From: an uncultured Clostridia bacterium | GTDB lineage: Bacteria > Bacillota > Clostridia > Christensenellales > UBA1242 | DNA: 64,000 nucleotides | NCBI GenBank assembly: GCA_944345705.1 | Contig: CALVML010000006.1 | Coordinates: 2,202-66,201, forward strand | Reading direction: 5' to 3' | In this document: positions 13,548-50,348 of the stretch, piece after piece | How the letters are laid out: every line of letters begins with the position of its first letter | Position numbering within the stretch: position 1 is the first letter of the stretch | Position numbers and translations under genes: made by a program | Notes under the pieces: model-generated | The model's database searches: none | Seen by the model: the letters and a program-made list of their open reading frames with translations, nothing else | Told to the model about the DNA's origin: nothing

Positions 13548-13620
13548 TTTTAAGGCAAGGTTGAATTTTGGGGAATTTTTGGGTAATGTGAATATCTTAG
13601 GGCAATAGTCATATCCTAGG

Positions 13621-13708
13621 GCAATCGGAAGCAAAATTTTTTAAAGTTTTAAAAAATTTTCGAAAACATAGTTTTCGGGTGTGCTTTAAAGCACACGCTT
13701 CCGATTGC
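13621..13708. repeat. 88-nt multi-hairpin element closed by a perfect 12-bp inverted repeat
   Basis: GCAATCGGAAGC (13621-13632) pairs with GCTTCCGATTGC (13697-13708). Inner hairpins are AAAATTTTTTAAA/TTTAAAAAATTTT, CGAAAAC/GTTTTCG and GTGTGC-TTTAA-GCACAC. The last is the same hairpin type as in the 137-bp repeat family. Confidence 0.6.
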
Positions 13709-14222
13709 AGTATTCAAAGCCAAACTTTGATCCAAAGAATAAGGCGATTTCTGTTTTTAAGTTTTTCCATAAAGAGATAGGGTATTGTAGATTTTCATAT
13801 TTATATTTAAGAAAATAAAATATTCCTAAAAATTTTTGATTATTTATAAAAAAATATGTCAAATCTATCACAAATCAAAGAAAATATGAATAATATAGAC
13901 TATGGAAAAAGAAAAGGATCAACAAAAAGAAAACGGCAAATTTAAGATAATTTGTATAAAAGCACCAAAGTGGCTTAGTTTTTTGCTTAGAAAATTCGCT
14001 TCAAAAAAGGAAGAAAAAATCGAGGCTTAAGTCTACTTGTACATAACTTAATCTATTTTAAATGTATAAATTATAGCATATTTAATGTAATGATTTTGTA
14101 ATAGTTATTATTTTTTCTATAAAATGCTATTCATTTTGCATATATGATTGATTTAATCATATATTTTTTATTTTTAAACATAATATTTTTAAATAATAAA
14201 TTATTTAAAACCCTGTGATCAT

Positions 14223-25595: not shown

Positions 25596-25694
25596 TTTTT
25601 TCTCCTTTTGTATTTAAGTAAATTTTTTTTCAAATTTTTGTTTGTCAATATTATTTATTATTAAAAGTCGAATTTTTGTAAGTGTGTAGTAAAT

Positions 25695-25778
25695 ACTATG
25701 TGATGGTGTGCAAATAGCACACAAATTCGACAGAATTTATTAAAATTTTATGACAATAAAATTTTAACATCACATAGT
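25695..25778 (+). repeat. Solo 84-nt core copy of the structured repeat family seen at 44.6 and 46.3-46.8 kb
   Basis: ACTATGTGATG-[GTGTGC AAAT AGCACAC]-AAATTCGACAGAATTTAT-[TAAAATTTTATGA CAA TAAAATTTTA]-ACATCACATAGT. An 11-bp closing inverted repeat, ending 2 nt before the ykvI-like start codon. Confidence 0.8.
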
Positions 25779-25780
25779 AT

Positions 25781-26809
25781 ATGAATATGACAGTCATTAT
25801 ATCGACTTTGACAATCGCAAGTGTAATCATAGGGTCGGGCTTTATTAGTGGCAAGGAAATTACCACTTTCTTTTCACGCTTTGGGACCATCTCATTTGCT
25901 TGTATTATCCTTGCATTTGCAATTTATTTTTTTACAATCAAGCTTATTCTAATTCACGCATCAAAGATTTTAGATAGGCTTTCTTCTTCTCGTCTTGCAA
26001 GCATCTCTAGCTTGATTATATCAATAGTCATTACAAGTGCGATGTTTGCAGGACTTATGAAGGTTTTACAATTTCATTTTGTCTTTAATTTACTAATCTT
26101 ATTTATCATTATAATCGGAGCAACTTTTGTTTTCAAAAGGGGGCTGAAAGCACTTTCGAAAATAAATCTTTTTTTTACGGGTACGAGCATCTTGATTTTT
26201 TCCTTTTTAATTTTTTCAAGGCTTGGAGATAATATTGTTACGCTAAAAAGCAGTATTTTCGCGCCTATTTACTCGCTACTCTATGTTGCTCTCAATCTTT
26301 CGCTTTCGATTGTCATCATTGCAAGCATTGGCAAGAAGCTTTCGTCAAGACAAAAGACACGAGTGGCATTTCTGTCGGCACTCGTGCTTTGTTTACTTAT
26401 CTTCATAGTAAATATTGTTTTGCTTCAAAATCAGTCGCTTTTAGGTCAAGATATGCCCATTTTGTCACTCTTTAGTGGCGGGGCAAGGATAGTCATGCAA
26501 ATAATTATCTTCATAAGTTGTTTGACTTCCATTTACTCACTTGTATTTTCAACTTCTGTTTCTTTGCGAGGGCTGTGCAAAAATGAATTTATAAATTTTG
26601 GAGTGAGTATAATTTTGCCACTGTTTATAGGTTTGATTGGCTATGGCGTCATAATTGACTATGTCTATCCTATTATCAGCGTGCTTAGTGTAATAGTACT
26701 AATCGATCTACTTTTTATACCTTTTTTCAAGCGGACTAACAAGAAAATACATTCCAGCGGCAAGGATACAAAGAAGGGTGATGCTTGCCATAACGATATC
26801 AAGTTTTAG
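25781..26809 (+). CDS. YkvI-family polytopic membrane protein (putative transporter)
   Basis: About 10-11 TM segments. N-terminal IGSGFISGKEITTFF resembles the YkvI family motif. Confidence 0.5.
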   Translation: MNMTVIISTLTIASVIIGSGFISGKEITTFFSRFGTISFACIILAFAIYFFTIKLILIHASKILDRLSSSRLASISSLIISIVITSAMFAGLMKVLQFHFVFNLLILFIIIIGATFVFKRGLKALSKINLFFTGTSILIFSFLIFSRLGDNIVTLKSSIFAPIYSLLYVALNLSLSIVIIASIGKKLSSRQKTRVAFLSALVLCLLIFIVNIVLLQNQSLLGQDMPILSLFSGGARIVMQIIIFISCLTSIYSLVFSTSVSLRGLCKNEFINFGVSIILPLFIGLIGYGVIIDYVYPIISVLSVIVLIDLLFIPFFKRTNKKIHSSGKDTKKGDACHNDIKF

Positions 26810-38664: not shown

Positions 38665-39834
38665 TTAACATAATTCAACATTGTAATCGTCATCAAAATA
38701 ATAGTTGTAGGTTGCAAGGTTTTGAGAATACTCATTTGCCTGTTCAATCTTTTCACCAGCAAAAGTATATTCAGTTGATTGAGATGTAGTTGTATATTTT
38801 CCTTCTTGAATATTGGCAATAATATCTTTAGGATTAACAGTAGATGCTTCTGCTCTTAAAGTGTATTTTTGGATACCATTATTTGTAATTTGATAAACTG
38901 TAATACTACTGTAATATATTCCATTATTTGCTACAGGAGTTCCGATACTGCACCAAATATCACCTTCAAGGGCGTTGTCAGCATCAATTGTTTGTATTAC
39001 AGTTTTGCCAAGGTCGGTGTTGTTTTCAATATCTTTCAAGGCAATTTCTGAATCTCTATAAGCAACAGAATAAGTAGCATCAGTTGCATTTCCTTTAATA
39101 ATATCTTGTACTGAATATGCTTGATTAAATGTTACTTTTCCAACTTTAAAATATCGAGTTGTGTCTGTATCATAGTATACTTTTACTTGTAATTCTTTTA
39201 TTTGATTATTATTGCTATTTGTAATCATCCATTCAGTGCTTGAAATATCATCAGCAGTGCCATTTCTTCCAATAAATTGTTTTGCTAAACTTTCCAAATG
39301 TGTTTCATTTAAGATTTGAGTAAACTCGTCAGCAAAATAGTTGATTTCGTCAACTTCGTCAACTTTGTCAATACTATCTGGAATGTCTTCATCACCAGGA
39401 TTTTCAGGATCGCCTGGATTTTCAGGATCATCTGGATCGGTAGGGTCAGAAGGGTCAGGATCGATAACAGGATCATCCGGATCAATGACAGGGTCATCAG
39501 GATCAATAACAGGGTCATCCGGATCAATAACAGGATCATCCGGATCAATAACAGGGTCATCAGGATCAATAACAGGGTCATCAGGATCAATAACAGGGTC
39601 ATCAGGTTCGTCTGGAAGAGGATTAACAATTCCTGGATCGTCTATGCTTGGATCGTCTTTATCAGGGTTACAACTTGATGTGCAACCTGCAAAGATAGAG
39701 ATAAGGCTTGCAATTAGAAGAACAGTAGCAATTTTAGCAAGTTTGTTTTTCTTGTGACTTTTTACAATGCCTCTATTTTTTTTCTTCTTTGTTTCAACTT
39801 TTGTTTCAACTTTTTCGAATTCGTTGTTTTCCAT
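38665..39834 (-). CDS. Lipoprotein with (DPDDPVI)x7 tandem repeat linker
   Basis: ATG 39834 lies 6 nt after AGGAGG. Lipobox SIFAGC. Seven heptad repeats, then a beta-rich C-terminal domain. Confidence 0.7.
   Translation of the reverse strand: MENNEFEKVETKVETKKKKNRGIVKSHKKNKLAKIATVLLIASLISIFAGCTSSCNPDKDDPSIDDPGIVNPLPDEPDDPVIDPDDPVIDPDDPVIDPDDPVIDPDDPVIDPDDPVIDPDDPVIDPDPSDPTDPDDPENPGDPENPGDEDIPDSIDKVDEVDEINYFADEFTQILNETHLESLAKQFIGRNGTADDISSTEWMITNSNNNQIKELQVKVYYDTDTTRYFKVGKVTFNQAYSVQDIIKGNATDATYSVAYRDSEIALKDIENNTDLGKTVIQTIDADNALEGDIWCSIGTPVANNGIYYSSITVYQITNNGIQKYTLRAEASTVNPKDIIANIQEGKYTTTSQSTEYTFAGEKIEQANEYSQNLATYNYYFDDDYNVELC
39457..39607 (-). repeat. In-frame 21-bp tandem repeat (about 7 copies)
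   Basis: GGATCAATAACAGGGTCATCA/C units on the + strand encode DPDDPVI on the - strand. Copies differ only at synonymous positions. Confidence 0.9.
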
Positions 39835-40049
39835 AAACAACCTCCTTAAATTTTTTTATTGCAATAACAAATGCATATTTCTACATTTATTATAGCAGAT
39901 ATAAATTAAATTTCAAGTGCTTTTTTAAAATTTGTCAAAATATTTTATGCTTTTACTCGCCATATTTGAATTTGGTTTAGTTTCTCCATCAATTCAAATT
40001 CTAATGTGTAAATATAGTTAATTTCATGCTGTCGGTTTGAGTTTTGCAC

Positions 40050-43258: not shown

Positions 43259-43299
43259 TAAGGATATAACAAGGACAAAACTTAAATTACAATTTACAA

Positions 43300-43500
43300 A
43301 AATTCAGTGAAAATTTCATATAATATCTAGTCAGAATTTTTAAAAAAATCTAGTAAAATTTCAAGGAAAGTCTACCAAGTTTTAAATAAGAAATTGGCTC
43401 AGATTTTCAATTTGACTTTGCTCACTTAAATATAGAAATTTGTCAGATTTTAATTTATGTTTGGCTAGTTTTTAATAAGATAATTAGCCGTTTTTTCATA
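43300..43500 (+). repeat. Iteron-like array: about 8 degenerate direct repeats at roughly 21-22-bp spacing
   Basis: Recurrent (C)TAG/CAG-N-(A/T)TTTT(C/A)A cores at about 43309, 43335, 43355, 43377, 43402, 43445, 43466 and 43489. Confidence 0.5.
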
Positions 43501-44060
43501 AAAGCCTTATCAAGACTAATAAATTTATTTTTTCGAAATTAAGCAAACATAATTTAAAAATTTAAAACAGCATAGTTATGTTTTCATAACAATGTTATAT
43601 TTTTAGTTATTATTACCGAAAGAGAGTAGCTAAGTAACTTTTTCGAGCGCAAACTATTGCTTGTTTTCTTGTAGTTTGGTAATTCTTTGATATCTATTTG
43701 ACTTTACATAAAATCAAATTAAAACTAGCATAGTTATTAAAACATAATTATGCTAATTTTTAGATATGATTACTTTGATCTTTAAGTGCTTTAAGTATAT
43801 CTTTGCATGTATTTATTGTGAGAATATGATATTGTATTTTTAAGTAATCATAGATAATAATGCAGAAAAAAAATATCATTTGCTTTAATGTGCCGAGATT
43901 TTGAATATTTTGTGAAGCCGATCATGCATACTAATTCTGTTTTTTATTTTATCAAGTGTAGTTGAAAACTTACATAGTTATAAAAACATGACTATGTATA
44001 TCATTATCATCATCATTAAATGATTTTATAAACAATTTTAAAGCGTTGGAGGGTTAAATC

Positions 44061-44178
44061 GAAGTAAAACTTGCAAACTTATTTTGAAAAATATAGAGTT
44101 GAGAGAATTTATGAATTTAGTTTTTGACTCTACACAAAACTGATTTAAAACTTACATAGTTATGAAAACATAACTATG
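44061..44178 (+). repeat. About 118-bp direct repeat, copy 1
   Basis: GAAGTAAAACTTGCAAACTTATTTTGAAAAATATAGAGTTGAGAGAATTTATGAATTTAGTTTTTGACTC... ending in the palindrome. Near-identical copy at 44386-44502. Confidence 0.85.
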
Positions 44179-44385
44179 CTAGCTTTTAGTTATACTATGT
44201 TTTTTAGTTATGATTTCCGCAAGAGAGTGGTTAAGCCACTTTCTCGAGCGCAAGCTATTAACTGTTTTTGCTGGATAGTTATTAAAACATAACTATGTAA
44301 TATTATTAAATTTAATCTTTTAATGCACGAAATTTAATCTTTATTAAGCAAATTTGAAACGTTTTTTTGGTAGGGGGGGGGAACT

Positions 44386-44502
44386 GAAGTAAGCCCTGCA
44401 AACTTATTTTGAAAAATATGGAGTTGAGAGAATTTAAGAATTTAGTTTTTGACTTTACATAAAATCGATTAAAAGTAGCATAGTTATGAAAACATAACTA
44501 TG
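44386..44502 (+). repeat. About 118-bp direct repeat, copy 2 (preceded by a G9 tract at 44373-44381)
   Basis: GAAGTAAGCCCTGCAAACTTATTTTGAAAAATATGGAGTTGAGAGAATTTAAGAATTTAGTTTTTGACTT... ending in the palindrome. Confidence 0.85.
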
Positions 44503-44639
44503 TTACTTTTTTTATTTAGATATTTTGTTTTTAGTAATTTTGATGTAAGGTTTATCTATGGCAGTTAGTATGTAAAATTTCAAAAAAAGATATTGTTCGT
44601 ATAATATATTTGCTTTTTAATATGGATCTTTATTAAATT

Positions 44640-45018
44640 TATATTATCGGAAGCCGAACTTGCTTGCAAGGGTGAGGCTGATGGTTATACATACTATGTG
44701 ATGAGTATGCGTTAGCATACAAATTCGCCAGAATTTATAAAATTTTATGATAATAAAATTTTAACATCACTTAGTTTATATTATCGGAAGCCGAACTTGC
44801 TTGCAAGAGTGAGGCTGATGGTTATACATACTGTGTGATAAGTATGCGTTAGCATACAAATTCGCCAGAATTTATAAAATTTTATGATAATAAAATTTTA
44901 ACATCACATTGTTTATATTATCTGAAGTCGAACCAAGCGTGACGAAGTCGCATTTGAGTGAGACTGATGGTTATACATACTGTGATGGACATAATTTATT
45001 GTGTTTTTGCGTTTAGTA
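44640..45018 (+). repeat. Tandem array of a 137-bp structured repeat (2 full units + 1 divergent truncated unit)
   Basis: Units start with TATATTATCGG at 44640 and 44777 and with TATATTATCTG at 44914. Each unit holds hairpins CTTGC-TT-GCAAG, GTATGC-GTTA-GCATAC and TAAAATTTTAT..ATAAAATTTTA, within an ACTATGTGATG/CATCAC.TAGT closing repeat. Confidence 0.9.
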
Positions 45019-45066
45019 ATAACTTATAAGCCTTTCATAAATGTAGACATCGACATCAGTTTTCAT
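45013..45066 (-). CDS. Candidate 17-aa micro-ORF (MKTDVDVYIYERLISYY)
   Basis: ATG at 45066 lies 5 nt after AAAGGAGA, stop TAA at 45013-45015. Divergent from the XRE gene. No conservation evidence is available. Confidence 0.25.
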   Translation of the reverse strand: MKTDVDVYIYERLISYY

Positions 45067-45120
45067 ATTCATCTCCTTTTTGTTATTACCTATATCTAAT
45101 TATACATATTTTAAATATTT

Positions 45121-45148
45121 TTGCAAATAATTTCAATAGATGTAATAT
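45121..45148 (+). promoter_or_regulatory. Candidate promoter of the XRE gene
   Basis: TTGCAA (45121-45126), 16-nt spacer, TAATAT (45143-45148). Confidence 0.4.
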
Positions 45149-45183
45149 GCATACTTTAATTCTTAATAATGTAAAATAAATGC

Positions 45184-45507
45184 ATGAAAGAAATTGATAA
45201 AAAATACATAGGTCAAAGAATTGCAACTCTTAGAAATGCAAAAAAGATATCAGCTAGAAATATGAGTTTAGATTTAGGGCAGAGTAGTGAGTATATAAAT
45301 CAAATAGAAAACGGCAGGAATTTTCCGTCACTAGAGGGGCTTTTAAATATTTGCGAATATTTTAATATTTCTATTGCCGAATTTTTTGATGAACAAAATA
45401 CCTATCCTTTGCAATATAAACAACTGATTTCACAATTAAACAAGTTAGACAATAGTGAACTTGATCTCATCATCGAATTAGTAAAATTAATAACAAAAGA
45501 TAAATAG
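45184..45507 (+). CDS. XRE-family helix-turn-helix transcriptional regulator (107 aa)
   Basis: IGQRIATLRNAKKISARNMSLDLGQSSEYINQIENGRNFPSLEGLLNICEYFNISIAEFF is a classic HTH_3/Cro-C1 domain. Confidence 0.85.
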   Translation: MKEIDKKYIGQRIATLRNAKKISARNMSLDLGQSSEYINQIENGRNFPSLEGLLNICEYFNISIAEFFDEQNTYPLQYKQLISQLNKLDNSELDLIIELVKLITKDK

Positions 45508-45576
45508 ATAAAATAAAACAGATATTTGTTAGTTTTCAAATTAAAAATAATTAAAATAAAATCATTTTAAATTAAA

Positions 45577-45610
45577 AACAACATAGTTATTAAAACATAA
45601 CTATGTTGTT
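45577..45610 (+). terminator. Seventh palindrome copy acting as terminator of the XRE gene
   Basis: AACAACATAGTTAT-TAAA-ACATAACTATGTTGTT followed by TTTTGTTTT, about 70 nt after the stop codon. Confidence 0.65.
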
Positions 45611-45824
45611 TTTGTTTTATTAAGTTGTTTGATTTTTGACAGATAATGATTGATTTAGTGTATTTACAGTTACAAGTGGAACAATTTTTTAAATGTTCAA
45701 AAATAAATATTTTTGGTGAAATCAAAAGAAGTCGTCTTTAGGAGAATTCGATTTTGTCATAATTTGCCAGTTTTTTAGTTTTGCATTATTGTTTATTCAA
45801 AATGGATTTTTCTTTAAATATCTC

Positions 45825-45871
45825 TCTTACAATAGTAAGAATTGATTATTTTTTTTTTTACTATTGTGAGA
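45825..45871 (+). promoter_or_regulatory. Operator-like inverted repeat with a T11 tract upstream of the second XRE gene
   Basis: TCTTACAATAGTAA (45825-45838) pairs with TTACTATTGTGAGA (45858-45871) with one mismatch. T11 run at 45849-45859. Confidence 0.45.
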
Positions 45872-45881
45872 AAATAACGTC

Positions 45882-46088
45882 ATGAACAACAAATTTAAAG
45901 AAATTCTTAAATCATTAAGAATAGAAAACAATGTTACTCAGCCACAACTTGCTACCGCAATAGGAGTAAGCAATGGTTTAATAAGTCTATGGGAAAATGG
46001 CTTGCGTGAACCGACAATGTCGAATTTGATCGTGCTAGCCAAATTTTTTCATGTAAGCATAGACTATTTAGTTGGGCTTGAAGATTAA
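45882..46088 (+). CDS. XRE-family helix-turn-helix transcriptional regulator (68 aa)
   Basis: LKSLRIENNVTQPQLATAIGVSNGLISLWENGLREPTMSNLIVLAKFFHVSIDYLVG is an HTH_3 domain only. Confidence 0.85.
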   Translation: MNNKFKEILKSLRIENNVTQPQLATAIGVSNGLISLWENGLREPTMSNLIVLAKFFHVSIDYLVGLED

Positions 46089-46268
46089 GATGATTTCTGC
46101 ATACCTGTATTAAAACATTTTTATTAACATATATAACATTATCAAATTTTAAATCTTTTGATTTCAAATATATAATACCAAAAAAGAAAAGACAATGTCA
46201 AACCATTTCTTACATTTGTAAGAATTTTTTTATAATATTAAAAAGTGATAGGGGGGGGAATAATATAT

Positions 46269-46838
46269 ACTATGTGATGTTAAAATTTTATGATCATAAA
46301 ATTTTAATAAATTCTGGCGAATTTGTATGCTAACGCATACTTATCACATAGTATGTATAACCATCAGCCTCACCCTTGCAAGCAAGTTCGGCTTCCGATA
46401 ATATAAACAATGTGATGTTAAAATTTTACTATCATAAAATTTAATAAATTCTGGCGAATTTGTGTGCTAATGCACACTCATCACATAGTATGTATAACCA
46501 TCAGTCTCACTCAAATGCGATTTTATCGCGCTTGGTTCGGCTTCCGATAATATAAACAATGTGATGTTAAAATTTTACTATCATAAAATTTTATAAATTC
46601 TGTCGAATTTGTGTGCTAACGCATACTCATCACATAGTATGTATAACCATCAGCCTCACCCTTGCAAGCAAGTTCGGCTTCCGATAATATAGACTATATG
46701 ATGTTAAAATTTAAGCAAGTTAAATTTTAAATTTGCTAAACGCAAAAACACAATAAATTGTGTTCATCACAGTATGTATGACCATCAGTCTCACTCAAAT
46801 GCGATTTCATCGCGCTTGGTTCGACTTCCGATAATATA
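46269..46838 (-). repeat. Inverted-orientation tandem array of the same structured repeat (4 units, 137-149 bp)
   Basis: On the + strand: units at 46269-46405, 46406-46554, 46555-46691 and 46692-46838 (divergent). They are the reverse complement of the 44.64-kb units. Preceded by a G8 tract at 46251-46258. Confidence 0.9.
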
Positions 46839-46909
46839 AAAACTGTATAAGTATATAAAAAATATGATCTTATCATTTTTTTATTATAATCTTAACTGAA
46901 AACATTTAT

Positions 46910-48553
46910 TTATAGGTTGTTTTCGTGGTCAGGGGGCAGTTGTTTTATGCTCTGTCTTTCTTTTTGACTTAAAATTTCGGCGAGCTGGCTTTCGAGTTTT
47001 TGCTGAGATTTTGCTTCTTTTTGGTCTTCATTTTTTAAAAGTGTGTGGATATGTTTGATTTCTTCATCAAGTTTTTGATGGTATGTTTGATAGAATAAAG
47101 ATACTTCTTGTTCGCTAAAATTATCCATTAAAAAGTTTTCAGTGAAGGCGTCGATCAACTTCTCAAGTATTTGCATTTGATAAGATTTTTGATAATCTGG
47201 CGACCTTTCTACTTCATCAGATGCAAGTTTGACTTTTGTGTCGATAAGATCGTTAAGAATTGCATTTTTATCGAAGGACTTTTCTATGGTTTCTATAAAG
47301 CTGTCATACTTGCATAGGGCTTTGAGATTTTCATCGATGGCAGGACCGTTTTTCTTTGATACAGCCGTGCGTCTTCTATAAAAACTAGCGTGAGTGTCAA
47401 TTTTTATGTCTTTTTTGTCGCCCTCTAGATATATGCAATATTTTCCGTTATCGAAGAGTAAAAAATCATATTTATTATTATTTGTGTTTAAAAAATATTG
47501 TCCTATTGCATGAGAGGGTGAGAATTCATCTTGAAAGGCTTGAAATTTGTTTTGTGTAATAAAATCAAGTGTGGCAGAATCTGCTGTAACAAACTGCAAT
47601 TTGTTGTTTACTATCTCCACATAACCATAGTCGCAGGTGAATATTATTTTAGAAAAAGTCTTGTTCAATAAGTTATGAGTTTGAAAAAGAATTTTATCTT
47701 CCAGTTGCGCTAATTGTATTTGGACATTTTGATCAAAAAACTGTGTTCTTTTATGGGTTTCAATGTCTTTCGCTCTCTTTTCTTTATCTTTTTGTTTTGC
47801 TTCTTGCAAAAATTTATCAACATATTTGCTGTATAAATCTTCGAGCAACTCATTTTCTTCCTGCAGTTGACTTTCGCTTAAAGTGTTTCGAAGTTTTTGA
47901 TAGTAGGCTTGAAAGGCCTCTTTTTGTGCATACTGCGATCTTGTAGGATATGGAGTAGTTGTGAATTCTGCTAAAGACAAAGCAAATTTTTGTCTTATAT
48001 ATTTAGTTATAGTATCTTTATTATATCCTGTATGTTCCTTTAAGCACTGCAGGGTGTACTTTTTCGATTGTAGATAGCTTTTTGCCTTATTATAGATATT
48101 CTCGTATTGATCTTTTGAAACTTGCCCAGTAGAATTTTTGTCTATATAATTAACTTGGCTTGCGTTTAGGTTTTGTAGAAATAACCAGCCTGTTCTATCT
48201 ATGCAGATCGACAAATTTCGTTCTTTATTTTTAAATAATTCAAGATAAAAATCGTTGTCGACGCTTCTTATAAAAAGCTTGCCTGTCTTTTTAAAACTAT
48301 CTAAATCGTCATCAATGACATATCGATTAAAGCAATCAAGATAAGCTTGGCTTGTTCTTTCATAAAATGAGATATTATCCAAAGAAAAAGGTGTTGTTTC
48401 AAGCATAATCACTCCATGCTCGCTATAGTCAAGTAAAATAGAGTTTGAAAAAGGTTGATATATTCCGTATGGATAGTAAACTTTGTCTTGTTTATAACAA
48501 AGTTTGCCTTTTAATAATTCCGCCAGCTTTTTTTCAGTTTTGCTTTGTGCCAT
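46910..48553 (-). CDS. Hypothetical 547-aa protein, paralog B of a tandem pair
   Basis: Shares colinear blocks with the upstream gene (YYQKLRNTLSESQLQEENELLEDLY vs FYEKLRATLSQEELDRENNLLEKSY; FTCDYGYVEIVNN vs YTCNYGYAYINN; LLFDNGKYCIYLEGD vs LLYSNDEYCIYIADR). No known catalytic motif recognised. Confidence 0.7.
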   Translation of the reverse strand: MAQSKTEKKLAELLKGKLCYKQDKVYYPYGIYQPFSNSILLDYSEHGVIMLETTPFSLDNISFYERTSQAYLDCFNRYVIDDDLDSFKKTGKLFIRSVDNDFYLELFKNKERNLSICIDRTGWLFLQNLNASQVNYIDKNSTGQVSKDQYENIYNKAKSYLQSKKYTLQCLKEHTGYNKDTITKYIRQKFALSLAEFTTTPYPTRSQYAQKEAFQAYYQKLRNTLSESQLQEENELLEDLYSKYVDKFLQEAKQKDKEKRAKDIETHKRTQFFDQNVQIQLAQLEDKILFQTHNLLNKTFSKIIFTCDYGYVEIVNNKLQFVTADSATLDFITQNKFQAFQDEFSPSHAIGQYFLNTNNNKYDFLLFDNGKYCIYLEGDKKDIKIDTHASFYRRRTAVSKKNGPAIDENLKALCKYDSFIETIEKSFDKNAILNDLIDTKVKLASDEVERSPDYQKSYQMQILEKLIDAFTENFLMDNFSEQEVSLFYQTYHQKLDEEIKHIHTLLKNEDQKEAKSQQKLESQLAEILSQKERQSIKQLPPDHENNL

Positions 48554-48562
48554 ATTTCTCCT

Positions 48563-50170
48563 TTAAAGTTCATTTTTATGATATATTTCTTGCTCAAAGT
48601 TTTTATTATAAATTGTCTTAGCCTTTTCTTCAAGGGCTTGTTCGTCAAATGTTTGTTTATGATTTTTATTTTGAGAGTAGGTTTTGATAGATTTTTCAAT
48701 TTCTTGATTTAATTCTTTATAAAAATTTTCTATCTCATCATTTTGGCAGTATTGTGTTAAATATTCAGAGATAAAAGATTGGGTTAATAGTTTATATTGT
48801 TGTTTGTCATAGTCATTTAAGTTGTCGATATCAATTATAAAACCGAGTTCGCGCATTTTGTCTTTAATAAGTTGCTCTTTCAATTTTTCAATAATTGAAG
48901 CGGTATTATATTTCTTTTTTAAGTTTTCTTTAAGTGTATATATAAAATAGTTAAAACTTGTAAGTTGTTGTAATGTTTGGTCATCAAGTTGTGTGTCGTT
49001 CACTGCGCCATCGTTTTTAAGATATGAATCAAAAAAATGTTTTTTTGTAGAACAACAGATACTTAAAAAAGGATTTTCATTCTTTCTATCAGCGATATAT
49101 ATGCAATACTCATCATTGCTATATAGCAGTATAGTGCAGTTGTCAGAATAACACGACTTGTATCTTTCACCTACGGCATCAAGTTGCGAAAATTCACTCT
49201 CTATTGAATGCCATTTTTTTATTTCTTTATCATCAAGATTAGATTTACTTGATGTTTCAAGACAGAGCCCTAAGTTATTTATATATGCATAGCCATAATT
49301 ACAAGTATACAATGGATATACAATGTCATTAAAAATATCGTTTTCTCTTATGCAGGGTTTTTCGTCAAAATCTTGATAGGTATCCATTTGGCTTAAATAT
49401 TCAAGTTGATTTTTTCTTGATTCTTGTAATCTTTCTTTTAAATTTTCAATTGTATCTGTTTGTTCCTTTTGTTTTAAAGTAATTTCTGCTTTATATGACT
49501 TTTCTAATAAATTGTTTTCCCTATCAAGTTCTTCTTGAGAGAGAGTTGCACGCAATTTTTCATAAAAGATTTTTATTAGTTCAAATTTTTTTTCATCTTT
49601 ATAGACAGTATCAAACTTTATGTTGGCAAGCAAATTAGCGTATGCTTCTCGCGTAGAGACTAAAAGATTTTCTTTTGTATAGCCAATAAATTTCTTTATT
49701 TCATCTAAAGCTGAAACTTGAGACTTTAAACAGTTTTGAAACATATCAACAGCATCTTTTGTTCTTAAAGAATTTGTTAAAAACTCTTGTTTTTCTTCTT
49801 TTGTAGCATCTTTAATTTCAAACTCTTGTCGATTTACAAGTTTAATATGTCCAAATTGAGATAATACAAAAGAGATTTTATTTTGATAGTTATATAATTC
49901 ATAGAAATACATTTTTGCATAATTGCCTGAGGTTATAATATTATCGCTTTTTTCAAATTCGTCAATTATGTCATCTATAACTATTCCATCAAATTGTTTA
50001 ATATAATACTCATCATCTCTCAAATATGTAAAAATAGAAAAGATCATATCTGATACTTTAATAACTCCATATTTATTTGCTTCCACGATGATTCGGTAAG
50101 ACTCGTCTGACATTATCATTTTACCCAAACTTGCATCTATTAGCTTCTGTTCATATTTTCCTATTGCCAT
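48563..50170 (-). CDS. Hypothetical 535-aa protein, paralog A of a tandem pair
   Basis: See paralog B. The gap to the downstream gene is 9 nt (operon). RBS AGAGG. Very AT-rich coding sequence. Confidence 0.7.
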   Translation of the reverse strand: MAIGKYEQKLIDASLGKMIMSDESYRIIVEANKYGVIKVSDMIFSIFTYLRDDEYYIKQFDGIVIDDIIDEFEKSDNIITSGNYAKMYFYELYNYQNKISFVLSQFGHIKLVNRQEFEIKDATKEEKQEFLTNSLRTKDAVDMFQNCLKSQVSALDEIKKFIGYTKENLLVSTREAYANLLANIKFDTVYKDEKKFELIKIFYEKLRATLSQEELDRENNLLEKSYKAEITLKQKEQTDTIENLKERLQESRKNQLEYLSQMDTYQDFDEKPCIRENDIFNDIVYPLYTCNYGYAYINNLGLCLETSSKSNLDDKEIKKWHSIESEFSQLDAVGERYKSCYSDNCTILLYSNDEYCIYIADRKNENPFLSICCSTKKHFFDSYLKNDGAVNDTQLDDQTLQQLTSFNYFIYTLKENLKKKYNTASIIEKLKEQLIKDKMRELGFIIDIDNLNDYDKQQYKLLTQSFISEYLTQYCQNDEIENFYKELNQEIEKSIKTYSQNKNHKQTFDEQALEEKAKTIYNKNFEQEIYHKNEL

Positions 50171-50348
50171 TATAAACCTCTATACAAATAGTACCATAAT
50201 TTTTAAAAAAGTCAATAAAGAATAAATATAATTATTTCTTAATAAAATTATATTTTAAATTTCTATAAAATATTTTTTAGTAATAAGAAGTACAATTTCT
50301 ATTTGCAATTTTTGATAAAATATGCTATTGTTAAAGTTAGGAGATAAA

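Follow-up and report, generated by a model that had tools for sequence, protein, structure and literature searches.

The 64,000-nt window analysed here (GenBank assembly GCA_944345705.1, contig CALVML010000006.1, positions 2,202–66,201 of the forward strand), from an uncultured Clostridia bacterium, contains two oppositely oriented tandem arrays of a structured repeat, one on either side of a segment carrying two XRE-family regulator genes. These arrays are probably two neighbouring clusters of a small, non-coding, non-autonomous structured interspersed repeat within a hypervariable genomic island, closest in kind to bcr1 of the Bacillus cereus group. The repeat family appears to be undescribed so far, although its kind is already known, and the inverted arrangement of the two arrays appears incidental, with no sign of a dedicated inversion switch. 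The window is Firmicute-like, has a G+C content of 34.5% and carries comEC, holA, der, plsY and spoIVA.

The left array comprises three head-to-tail units on the + strand (44638–45021), the third one truncated, and the right array four head-to-tail units on the − strand (46260–46846); Tandem Repeats Finder, a repeat finder and pattern scans all agreed on these. The segment between them (45022–46259, ~1.25 kb) includes both XRE genes. Inverted-repeat arms between the arrays are 109–245 nt long and 91–97% complementary (longest arm 245 nt at 91%; 109-nt arm at 97%), and diagnostic 20–24-mers gave seven matches each, against means of 0.00 and 0.05 in dinucleotide shuffles of the window. The layout described in the initial annotation of this stretch (seven units in inverted arrays enclosing a 1.25-kb segment with both XRE genes) was confirmed, as was the position of the right array directly downstream of, and on the same strand as, an operon of two paralogous genes, ~64 nt past the stop codon of the 547-aa gene. 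The seven units are not the full set in the window, however, as an eighth, decayed copy had been overlooked. The units are listed below, where L1–L3 and R1–R4 denote units of the window; L001–L140 are used for comparison loci fetched from other assemblies.

44638–44774, + strand: unit L1, short 5′ rod (CUUG tetraloop), type-A 3′ domain with three GNNA-capped hairpins
44775–44911, + strand: unit L2, local tandem duplicate of L1 (96% identity)
44912–45021, + strand: unit L3, long 5′ rod, type-C hairpin 1; ends after GCGTTTAGTAA
46263–46409, − strand: unit R1, innermost of the right array, short rod, type A; covariance model (CM) score 162.6 bits
46410–46549, − strand: unit R2, long rod, type A
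46550–46695, − strand: unit R3, short rod, type A; CM 158 bits
46696–46846, − strand: unit R4, outermost of the right array, long rod, complete type-C 3′ domain; 46842–46696 when read 5′ to 3′
25681–25784, + strand: eighth copy, decayed, found by CM scan of the whole window; nhmmer E 3e-14, CM 75.5 bits

Units are modular, combining a 5′ rod with a short or long apical hairpin and a 3′ set of three hairpins of type A or type C. The repeat period of 137 bp given in the initial annotation applies to short-rod units (CUUG tetraloop; 137 nt) but not to long-rod units (149 nt). L1 scores 164 bits over CM positions 1–147 and its RNA fold is at −39.2 kcal/mol (z −4.8). L3 covers positions 3–108 of the 147 in the nhmmer model, with the 3′ third missing; from comparison with strain L114, this truncation comes from a deletion that also took most of a small open reading frame (ORF). 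The rod of R2 pairs GAAGCC with GAGACT, giving one C·A mismatch, as expected of a recombinant unit. The eighth copy has an eroded 5′ rod and an intact 3′ domain, the 3′ end of which overlaps the start of an ORF at 25781–26809. Two G tracts in AT-rich intergenic surroundings, G9 (44373–44381) and G8 (46251–46258, directly abutting R1), are possible slippage sites.

One genome per GTDB species was scanned with a gapped, rod-derived pattern, exact matches being required. The matches listed comprise more than 111 stretches, and all but four chance matches fell in 29 species-level metagenome-assembled genomes (MAGs; uncultured Clostridia, Firmicutes or Christensenella sp.), with at least 10–13 positive loci in each of four MAGs. 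A second pattern matched 18 metagenome contigs, human-gut assemblies among them. Copies elsewhere, for which the initial annotation had suggested a search, proved numerous: nhmmer profile searches of 131 fetched loci plus the window identified 201 copies, grouped in 143 arrays of one (97), two (37), three (6) or four (3) head-to-tail units, the element being non-coding and 137–160 bp long. Contig ends coincide with 67 of the 143 arrays, as expected if the repeat breaks short-read assemblies, so that copy counts are lower bounds. Every array with usable flanks is intergenic, and orientation with respect to flanking genes is random (same/same 19, opposite/opposite 18, convergent 18, divergent 13), which argues against a cis-regulatory leader or terminator and also, with gene direction as no more than a proxy for replication, against lagging-strand-targeted insertion. 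No recurrent protein family was found beside copies in 76 contexts, the neighbours being ordinary housekeeping genes. Subfamilies are common to several species, best matches being 94.8% identical within a MAG and 94.0% across MAGs.

The unit had no match in IMG/VR viral contigs (pattern scan) or in INPHARED phages and PLSDB plasmids (BLAST). At the gathering threshold, Rfam 15 gave no family on the window or on 15 loci holding ~30 copies; permissive thresholds yielded snoRNA/miRNA noise, with Clostridiales-1 as the best match (17.7 bits vs a threshold of 48, many mispairs). No tRNA or tmRNA was detected by a scan for such genes, and literature searches with unit sequence strings and keywords returned unrelated primers and papers but no description of the element.

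Fold and conservation were analysed in an alignment of 124 distinct full-length copies. Near-invariant blocks are located at the 5′ end (TATATTATCGGAAG), in the centre (CTGATGGTYATACATAC) and at the 3′ end (CATCACATAGTTTATAT), with freely varying stems between them, and the near-invariant nucleotides are concentrated in internal loops and the linker (AUCGGAAG, CUGAUGGU and AUACAUAC). In the 5′ rod, tandem G·A loops lie between two short helices, some G·U pairs are conserved and the apical hairpin is exchangeable; one 2×2 G·A loop is replaced in a subfamily. The remainder of the unit forms an 11-bp closing stem enclosing three exchangeable hairpins (a four-way junction), and the sequence of the central linker complements that of each terminal box. 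The structure that was scored (54 pairs) was drawn by hand, as RNAalifold on the MAFFT alignment under-predicted the AU-rich hairpins, type-A and type-C modules being offset by 1–3 columns.

Selection for a strand-specific fold is strongly supported by covariation, in agreement with the selection for structure proposed in the initial annotation. Paired cells amount to 92.3%, vs 83.6% in column shuffles, and 29 pairs have changed on both sides, vs 17.7 expected (0/500 shuffles reached either value); in a control with the 3′ partner slid by 1–3 columns, paired cells fell to 33–47%. One covarying stem is AGCC/GGCU in 76 sequences and AGUC/GACU in 42. Hairpin H1 exists in 42 versions, most of them able to fold as hairpins (e.g. 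GUGUGC/GCACAC, GUAUGC/GCAUAC, GCGUGC/GCACGC, ACACAAU/AUUGUGU and GUGCAAU/AUUGCAC), and the GTATGC/GCATAC vs GTGTGC/GCACAC alternative picked out in the initial annotation is a true compensatory pair in this hairpin. The other example in that annotation, CTTGC..GCAAG vs GCGAT..ATCGC, is in fact a swap of rod apical modules (short, with CUUG tetraloop, vs long). GNNA tetraloops cap the type-A hairpins and a CUUG tetraloop the short rod. All four combinations of rod type and 3′-domain type are present, and single hairpins have also been swapped among copies. In 122/124 copies the given strand folds more stably than the complementary one (means −40.9 vs −34.6 kcal/mol), and conserved G·U pairs vary one-sidedly to Watson-Crick pairs (U·G to C-G, columns 12–62; G·U to A-U, columns 14–60). 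With DNA energy parameters the three-hairpin domain folds on either strand but the rod does not, and its formation with RNA parameters only suggests that the molecule that folds is RNA, at least where the rod is concerned.

A 103-nt intergenic element elsewhere in the window (13610–13712, − strand) folds extremely stably (−42.7 kcal/mol, z = −10), with a 12-bp closing stem (GCAAUCGGAAGC/GCUUCCGAUUGC) around three hairpins. It has both the 5′-end word of the unit (AUCGGAAGC) and its H1 stem (GUGUGC/GCACAC), and so may be related to the repeat by rearrangement; the fetched loci yielded no further copy.

Copies of the repeat carry the 10-mer TTTATATTAT at both ends, its outer half being degenerate at each: TTT is found at 67/79/83% ahead of ATATTATC at the 5′ end, and T/A/T at 81/70/56% past GTTTATAT at the 3′ end, with background composition in the flanks outside. 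Tandem units share exactly one copy of TTTATATTAT. Terminal inverted repeats were looked for and are absent, the 5′ end, (T)ATATTATCGGAAG, and the 3′ end, CATCACATAGTTTATAT(T), being direct repeats, and no target-site duplication differing between copies was found, as the TATAT(T) box is at both ends throughout. Variation in the 5′ box is not mirrored in the 3′ box. This pattern resembles the hybrid attachment sites left by site-specific insertion, but could equally correspond to terminal direct repeats belonging to the element.

The only cross-species empty site is in L112, at the position where L041 has three units inserted ahead of a dnaX-like gene, past its −10 box but before its ribosome-binding site; these three forward units in the 5′ untranslated region (5′UTR) apparently leave the downstream gene unblocked. 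A second candidate empty site (L103 vs L096) is too diverged to read. Adjacent units have a median identity of 82%, vs 94.6% to the best non-adjacent copy, and are mutual closest relatives in only 6/34 pairs, with L1/L2 among the few local duplications, so that arrays have mostly been built from different family members. Their build-up is by insertion beside a resident copy, by ectopic recombination, or by both. Rare variants are equally frequent in paired and unpaired columns (0.75 and 0.77 per column; 46/75 break a pair), as expected if copies drift after insertion and structure is selected in propagating lineages, and the family includes decayed and truncated copies.

For an interspersed repeat of this kind, spread would be driven by a putative trans-acting machinery, through insertion at, or recombination through, a TTTATAT-like core that the element itself would regenerate. 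Because of this regeneration, new copies would land beside old ones and give head-to-tail arrays, in which homologous recombination between units could then reshuffle modules. The fold would be what selection keeps in propagating lineages and most likely acts as RNA, given that the rod forms only with RNA-type pairs; individual copies would afterwards drift nearly neutrally, with a few becoming fixed and conserved.

Several points weigh against such a scheme. Mobility is inferred from insertion differences and copy features. The L112/L041 empty site has no clear target duplication and no TATAT-like target. In the 131 loci, where split ends, orphan ends and recurrent flanking protein families were sought, neither a transposase or recombinase nor an autonomous partner sharing the ends of the repeat was identified. 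Array heterogeneity could stem from ectopic recombination rather than insertion, and L3 and the L114 unit share their 3′ half and differ in the rod. Lastly, one orthologous copy is 93–98% identical in four species, with 250-bp flanks at 59–92%, and displays a stepwise change in the closing stem (G-C to A·C to A-U). Its conservation suggests host-level constraint on at least some copies, more in keeping with a functional RNA than with a purely selfish element. A tRNA gene lies ~210 bp upstream of this best-conserved copy, in the same orientation (L024, 6796–6869 and 7081–7225; orthologues in L096, L061 and L074), and a conserved hairpin-like stretch follows the copy.

As the main rival explanation, the units might instead be genes of a multi-copy, host-beneficial non-coding RNA (ncRNA) of a new class, with tandem copies processed to ~140-nt RNAs and dispersal as a by-product of duplication or recombination, which we regard as possible, if unlikely. 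Strong covariation, conserved junction nucleotides beside variable stems, GNNA and CUUG tetraloops, strand-specific stability, G·U pairs whose one-sided changes yield Watson-Crick pairs, and a rod that needs RNA parameters are all compatible with such genes, as are compensatory change at a single locus in an orthologous copy far better conserved than its flanks, and a near-invariant TATTAT (T7, A8) 5–7 nt ahead of the rod, a candidate −10 box. However, single copies have neither a common −35 element, leading to rejection of the promoter reading of this box, nor any other common upstream sequence, and in the best fold the 5′ box pairs with the linker and so would lie inside the RNA. In addition, type-A units have no convincing terminator, rare variants are no less frequent in stems than in loops and tend to disrupt pairing, strains and species differ in the copies they carry, and decay or truncation has affected many copies. 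From the tandem structured-RNA genes suggested in the initial annotation, the strand-specific fold is retained, whereas the lack of a shared −35 element and the ability of units to sit inside a 5′UTR count against the suggestion. The interspersed-repeat and ncRNA-gene readings are compatible with each other, bcr1 being an example (see below).

We consider it doubtful that the mobile repeat carries a new functional class of structured RNA, whether self-processing or guide-like (the linker would pair with both TTTATATTAT boxes and direct site-specific insertion of the element via a trans-acting enzyme), or that it is a multi-copy regulatory RNA of gut Clostridia. That the unit is itself a self-processing RNA (a new self-cleaving ribozyme) or a recombinase guide RNA, with arrays yielding unit-length or circular RNAs, is highly unlikely. 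Near-invariant nucleotides do cluster in internal loops and the linker, the linker matches both terminal boxes by complementarity (the loops and this pairing would then be catalytic or guide elements), and exact head-to-tail arrays resemble ribozyme-carrying repeats, but no Rfam ribozyme or guide-RNA family was matched even at E ≤ 10, 2×2 G·A loops are common structural motifs, one of them replaced in a subfamily, and no associated protein gene was found in the contexts inspected.

Other candidates, compared with their motifs as generally known, were rejected. In relation to a hammerhead, CUGAUG and GAA are in the wrong order, unfit for the core, and there is no stem I, while the hairpin ribozyme has just a UAUAUUA word in common with the unit. 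The loops are symmetric (2×2 G·A) and lack the 3-nt bulge of a kink-turn. For an integron attC site, R-box pairing, cassettes and IntI are all absent, and the arms fail to align with those of a Xer/dif site.

The arrays are located between holA and der, in a region (43259–50321) with content that differs even among close strains. In L134 (HolA 69% identical) der, then plsY, directly follow holA, identifying the 7 kb between holA and der in the window as an island. Features of this island near the arrays are as follows.

43259–44637, strand not applicable: ORF-poor spacer downstream of holA, part of the hypervariable holA–der island
45013–45072, − strand: remnant (19 codons) of an ORF that has its full 72 aa in L114
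45184–45507, + strand: XRE-family helix-turn-helix (HTH) gene, 107 aa; Pfam HTH_19/HTH_3
45882–46088, + strand: second XRE-family HTH gene, 68 aa; Pfam HTH_3, E 5e-15

L114 is 97% identical to the window over the XRE segment, with one unit, in the same orientation, vs three in the window. The small ORF is intact here (72 aa; 150–370, − strand), divergent from the first XRE gene, and its C-terminal codons and stop codon are supplied by the repeat unit. L132 is 95% identical to the window through comEC–holA but has no unit and no XRE gene, and instead carries an orphan 411-aa lipoprotein-like gene between a hairpin-rich spacer and the paralog operon. The breakpoints lie ~130 bp and 45 bp outside the arrays, and with another gene filling the gap there is no clean excision. 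Neither the 72-aa ORF nor this 411-aa gene had a significant Pfam match. L001 has the paralog operon without any unit, and after the operon comes a leucine-rich-repeat gene.

Homologues of the 107-aa XRE protein (69% identity, L135–L140) are encoded in small integrase-bearing islands without units, and the XRE genes of the window are thus best read as the remnant of such an island, both sides of which have been colonised by repeats. The 107-aa XRE gene is variable-island cargo and not part of the repeat, and no functional link is seen between the arrays and either the XRE genes or the paralog operon. In L135–L140 the gene for a 452-aa tyrosine integrase comes first, then a 60-aa gene and one of 104 or 154 aa, and last the XRE gene, with variable defence-like cargo (HATPase_c_3, PDDEXK_4, SocA_Panacea, DUF6575) and, slightly further along, an anti-Pycsar Apyc1-like gene.

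Least probable of the explanations considered is that the inverted arrays are arms of an invertible cassette, as the initial annotation had also suggested, or composite-transposon-like ends, flipping or moving both XRE genes relative to the paralog operon. The arms are long and similar enough (245 nt at 91%, 109 nt at 97%) for homologous recombination to be physically possible, the segment with both arrays and the XRE genes is missing from L132, and XRE-segment contigs from other samples are ~1.27 kb long, i.e. repeat-bounded on both sides. Yet no recombinase or invertase is encoded among ORFs of at least 50 aa between 43.2 and 50.3 kb, where the gene-like ones are the two XRE genes and the two orphan paralogs. 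Flanking inverted repeats, a feature of invertons, are present but no adjacent site-specific recombinase was found among these ORFs, and L114, the sole independent contig across a junction, has the orientation of the window. Furthermore, the arms are ordinary members of a randomly oriented genome-wide family, the L132 breakpoints lie outside the arrays with the gap filled by another gene, XRE homologues elsewhere are unflanked, and both L001 and L132 carry the paralog operon without units. This suggestion is thus unsupported. RecA-type recombination between the arrays could still flip the 1.25-kb segment occasionally.

The paralogs beside the right array (46910–48553 and 48563–50170, both − strand) are adjacent, encode 547 and 535 aa, and are 24% identical. 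Neither had a Pfam, PADLOC or PHROGs match above threshold, the sole PADLOC match among array-adjacent proteins being a generic HTH. Only two sequence clusters among 5.8 billion proteins correspond to them, making the two genes an orphan pair of this lineage, located within the variable island. Another repeat family, of purely local occurrence (43571–44502 and 45582–45605), comprises seven copies of the hairpin CATAGTTATKAAAACATAACTATG, some of them terminator-like, and includes 105-nt duplicated modules at 44045–44149 and 44370–44474. This family occupies the 1.4-kb ORF-free spacer that follows holA, and reappears between the XRE genes; among the first 131 fetched loci, the exact hairpin word is found in L114 only, with related modules in L132. 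Outside the island, a lipoprotein-like ORF of 391 aa (38665–39840, − strand) contains DPDDPVI-type repeats, which stem from a 21-nt tandem repeat in the DNA (39455–39606; 7.2 copies, 92% matches).

These results remove a tempting false lead, as a phase-variable switch of the XRE regulators by the arrays is unsupported. They also define an apparently undescribed repeat family that Rfam 15 does not contain and that is abundant in Clostridia of the human and animal gut belonging to a little-studied clade. The family accounts for many assembly breaks in these MAGs, marks hypervariable islands and is a potential strain-typing marker. Clean covariation, GNNA-capped hairpins, exchangeable modules and ends without terminal inverted repeats make it a promising place to look for a new RNA function or a new mobilisation mechanism of bcr1 type, although interest would be high only if the fold does have a catalytic, guide or regulatory function.

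Among known systems, a clustered regularly interspaced short palindromic repeat (CRISPR) array, already dismissed in the initial annotation, does not apply, as units abut directly, whole units are homologous and there are no unique spacers. A type III toxin-antitoxin RNA array (ToxI-like, with ~36-nt repeats by an endoribonuclease gene) was rejected given units of 137–149 nt and no consistent neighbour in 76 contexts. Miniature inverted-repeat transposable elements (MITEs) have two defining features, terminal inverted repeats and a target-site duplication that differs from one site to the next. Like RUP and Correia/nemis elements of this type, the repeat is small, non-coding, multi-copy, intergenic, strain-variable and folded, but both defining features were sought and neither was found. 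The MITE pile-up suggested in the initial annotation therefore holds as far as a dispersed, intergenic, randomly oriented and strain-variable repeat in 29 MAGs is concerned, but not for terminal inverted repeats or variable duplications, and these dispersed copies are not an ordinary MITE with target-site duplications. Repetitive extragenic palindromic (REP) sequences, bacterial interspersed mosaic elements (BIMEs) and IS200/IS605-derived elements also lack terminal inverted repeats and target duplications, have hairpins and clustered copies, and are mobilised in trans. However, REPs are 20–40-bp GC-rich single hairpins, and the strong strand bias of IS200/IS605 elements contrasts with 19 co- and 18 anti-oriented copies between co-directional genes here (orientation serving only as a replication proxy). 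A reading based on REP and REP-associated tyrosine transposases (RAYT) fails on such specifics, and no Y1 transposase was seen in the flanks of copies.

BOX elements of Streptococcus pneumoniae are modular structured intergenic repeats with variable tandem sub-units and predicted action at the RNA level, and are non-autonomous (PMC3184786). The repeat is likewise modular, tandem, structured, intergenic and non-autonomous, but in boxA-(boxB)n-boxC only the middle module is repeated, as opposed to whole units here, and BOX ends resemble inverted repeats, with mobilisation by ISStso1 proposed, whereas here there are no inverted ends and no partner was found.

bcr1 (group A BCR) of the Bacillus cereus group is ~155 bp long, non-coding and non-autonomous, with tens of strain-variable intergenic copies flanked by TTTAT direct repeats, and a mechanism resembling site-specific recombination has been proposed; it is transcribed, and compensatory changes keep a multi-stem fold at the RNA level (PMC3184786, PMC6542083). 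Our comparison uses these published features, and no Bacillus genome matched in the rod-pattern scan, with its requirement for exact matches. The unit differs from bcr1 in having a rod and four-way junction rather than a two-stem cruciform, in its exact head-to-tail arrays and hairpin-module swapping, and in its uncultured gut Clostridia hosts. As for bcr1, the host is a low-GC Firmicute, and the ~150-bp non-autonomous repeat has an AT-rich direct repeat, with TTTAT lying within the TTTATATTAT ends. Distribution is similarly non-conserved (L041 vs L112, window vs L114, window vs L132), one orthologous copy being conserved, and in both families compensatory changes keep an RNA fold (29 covarying pairs here).

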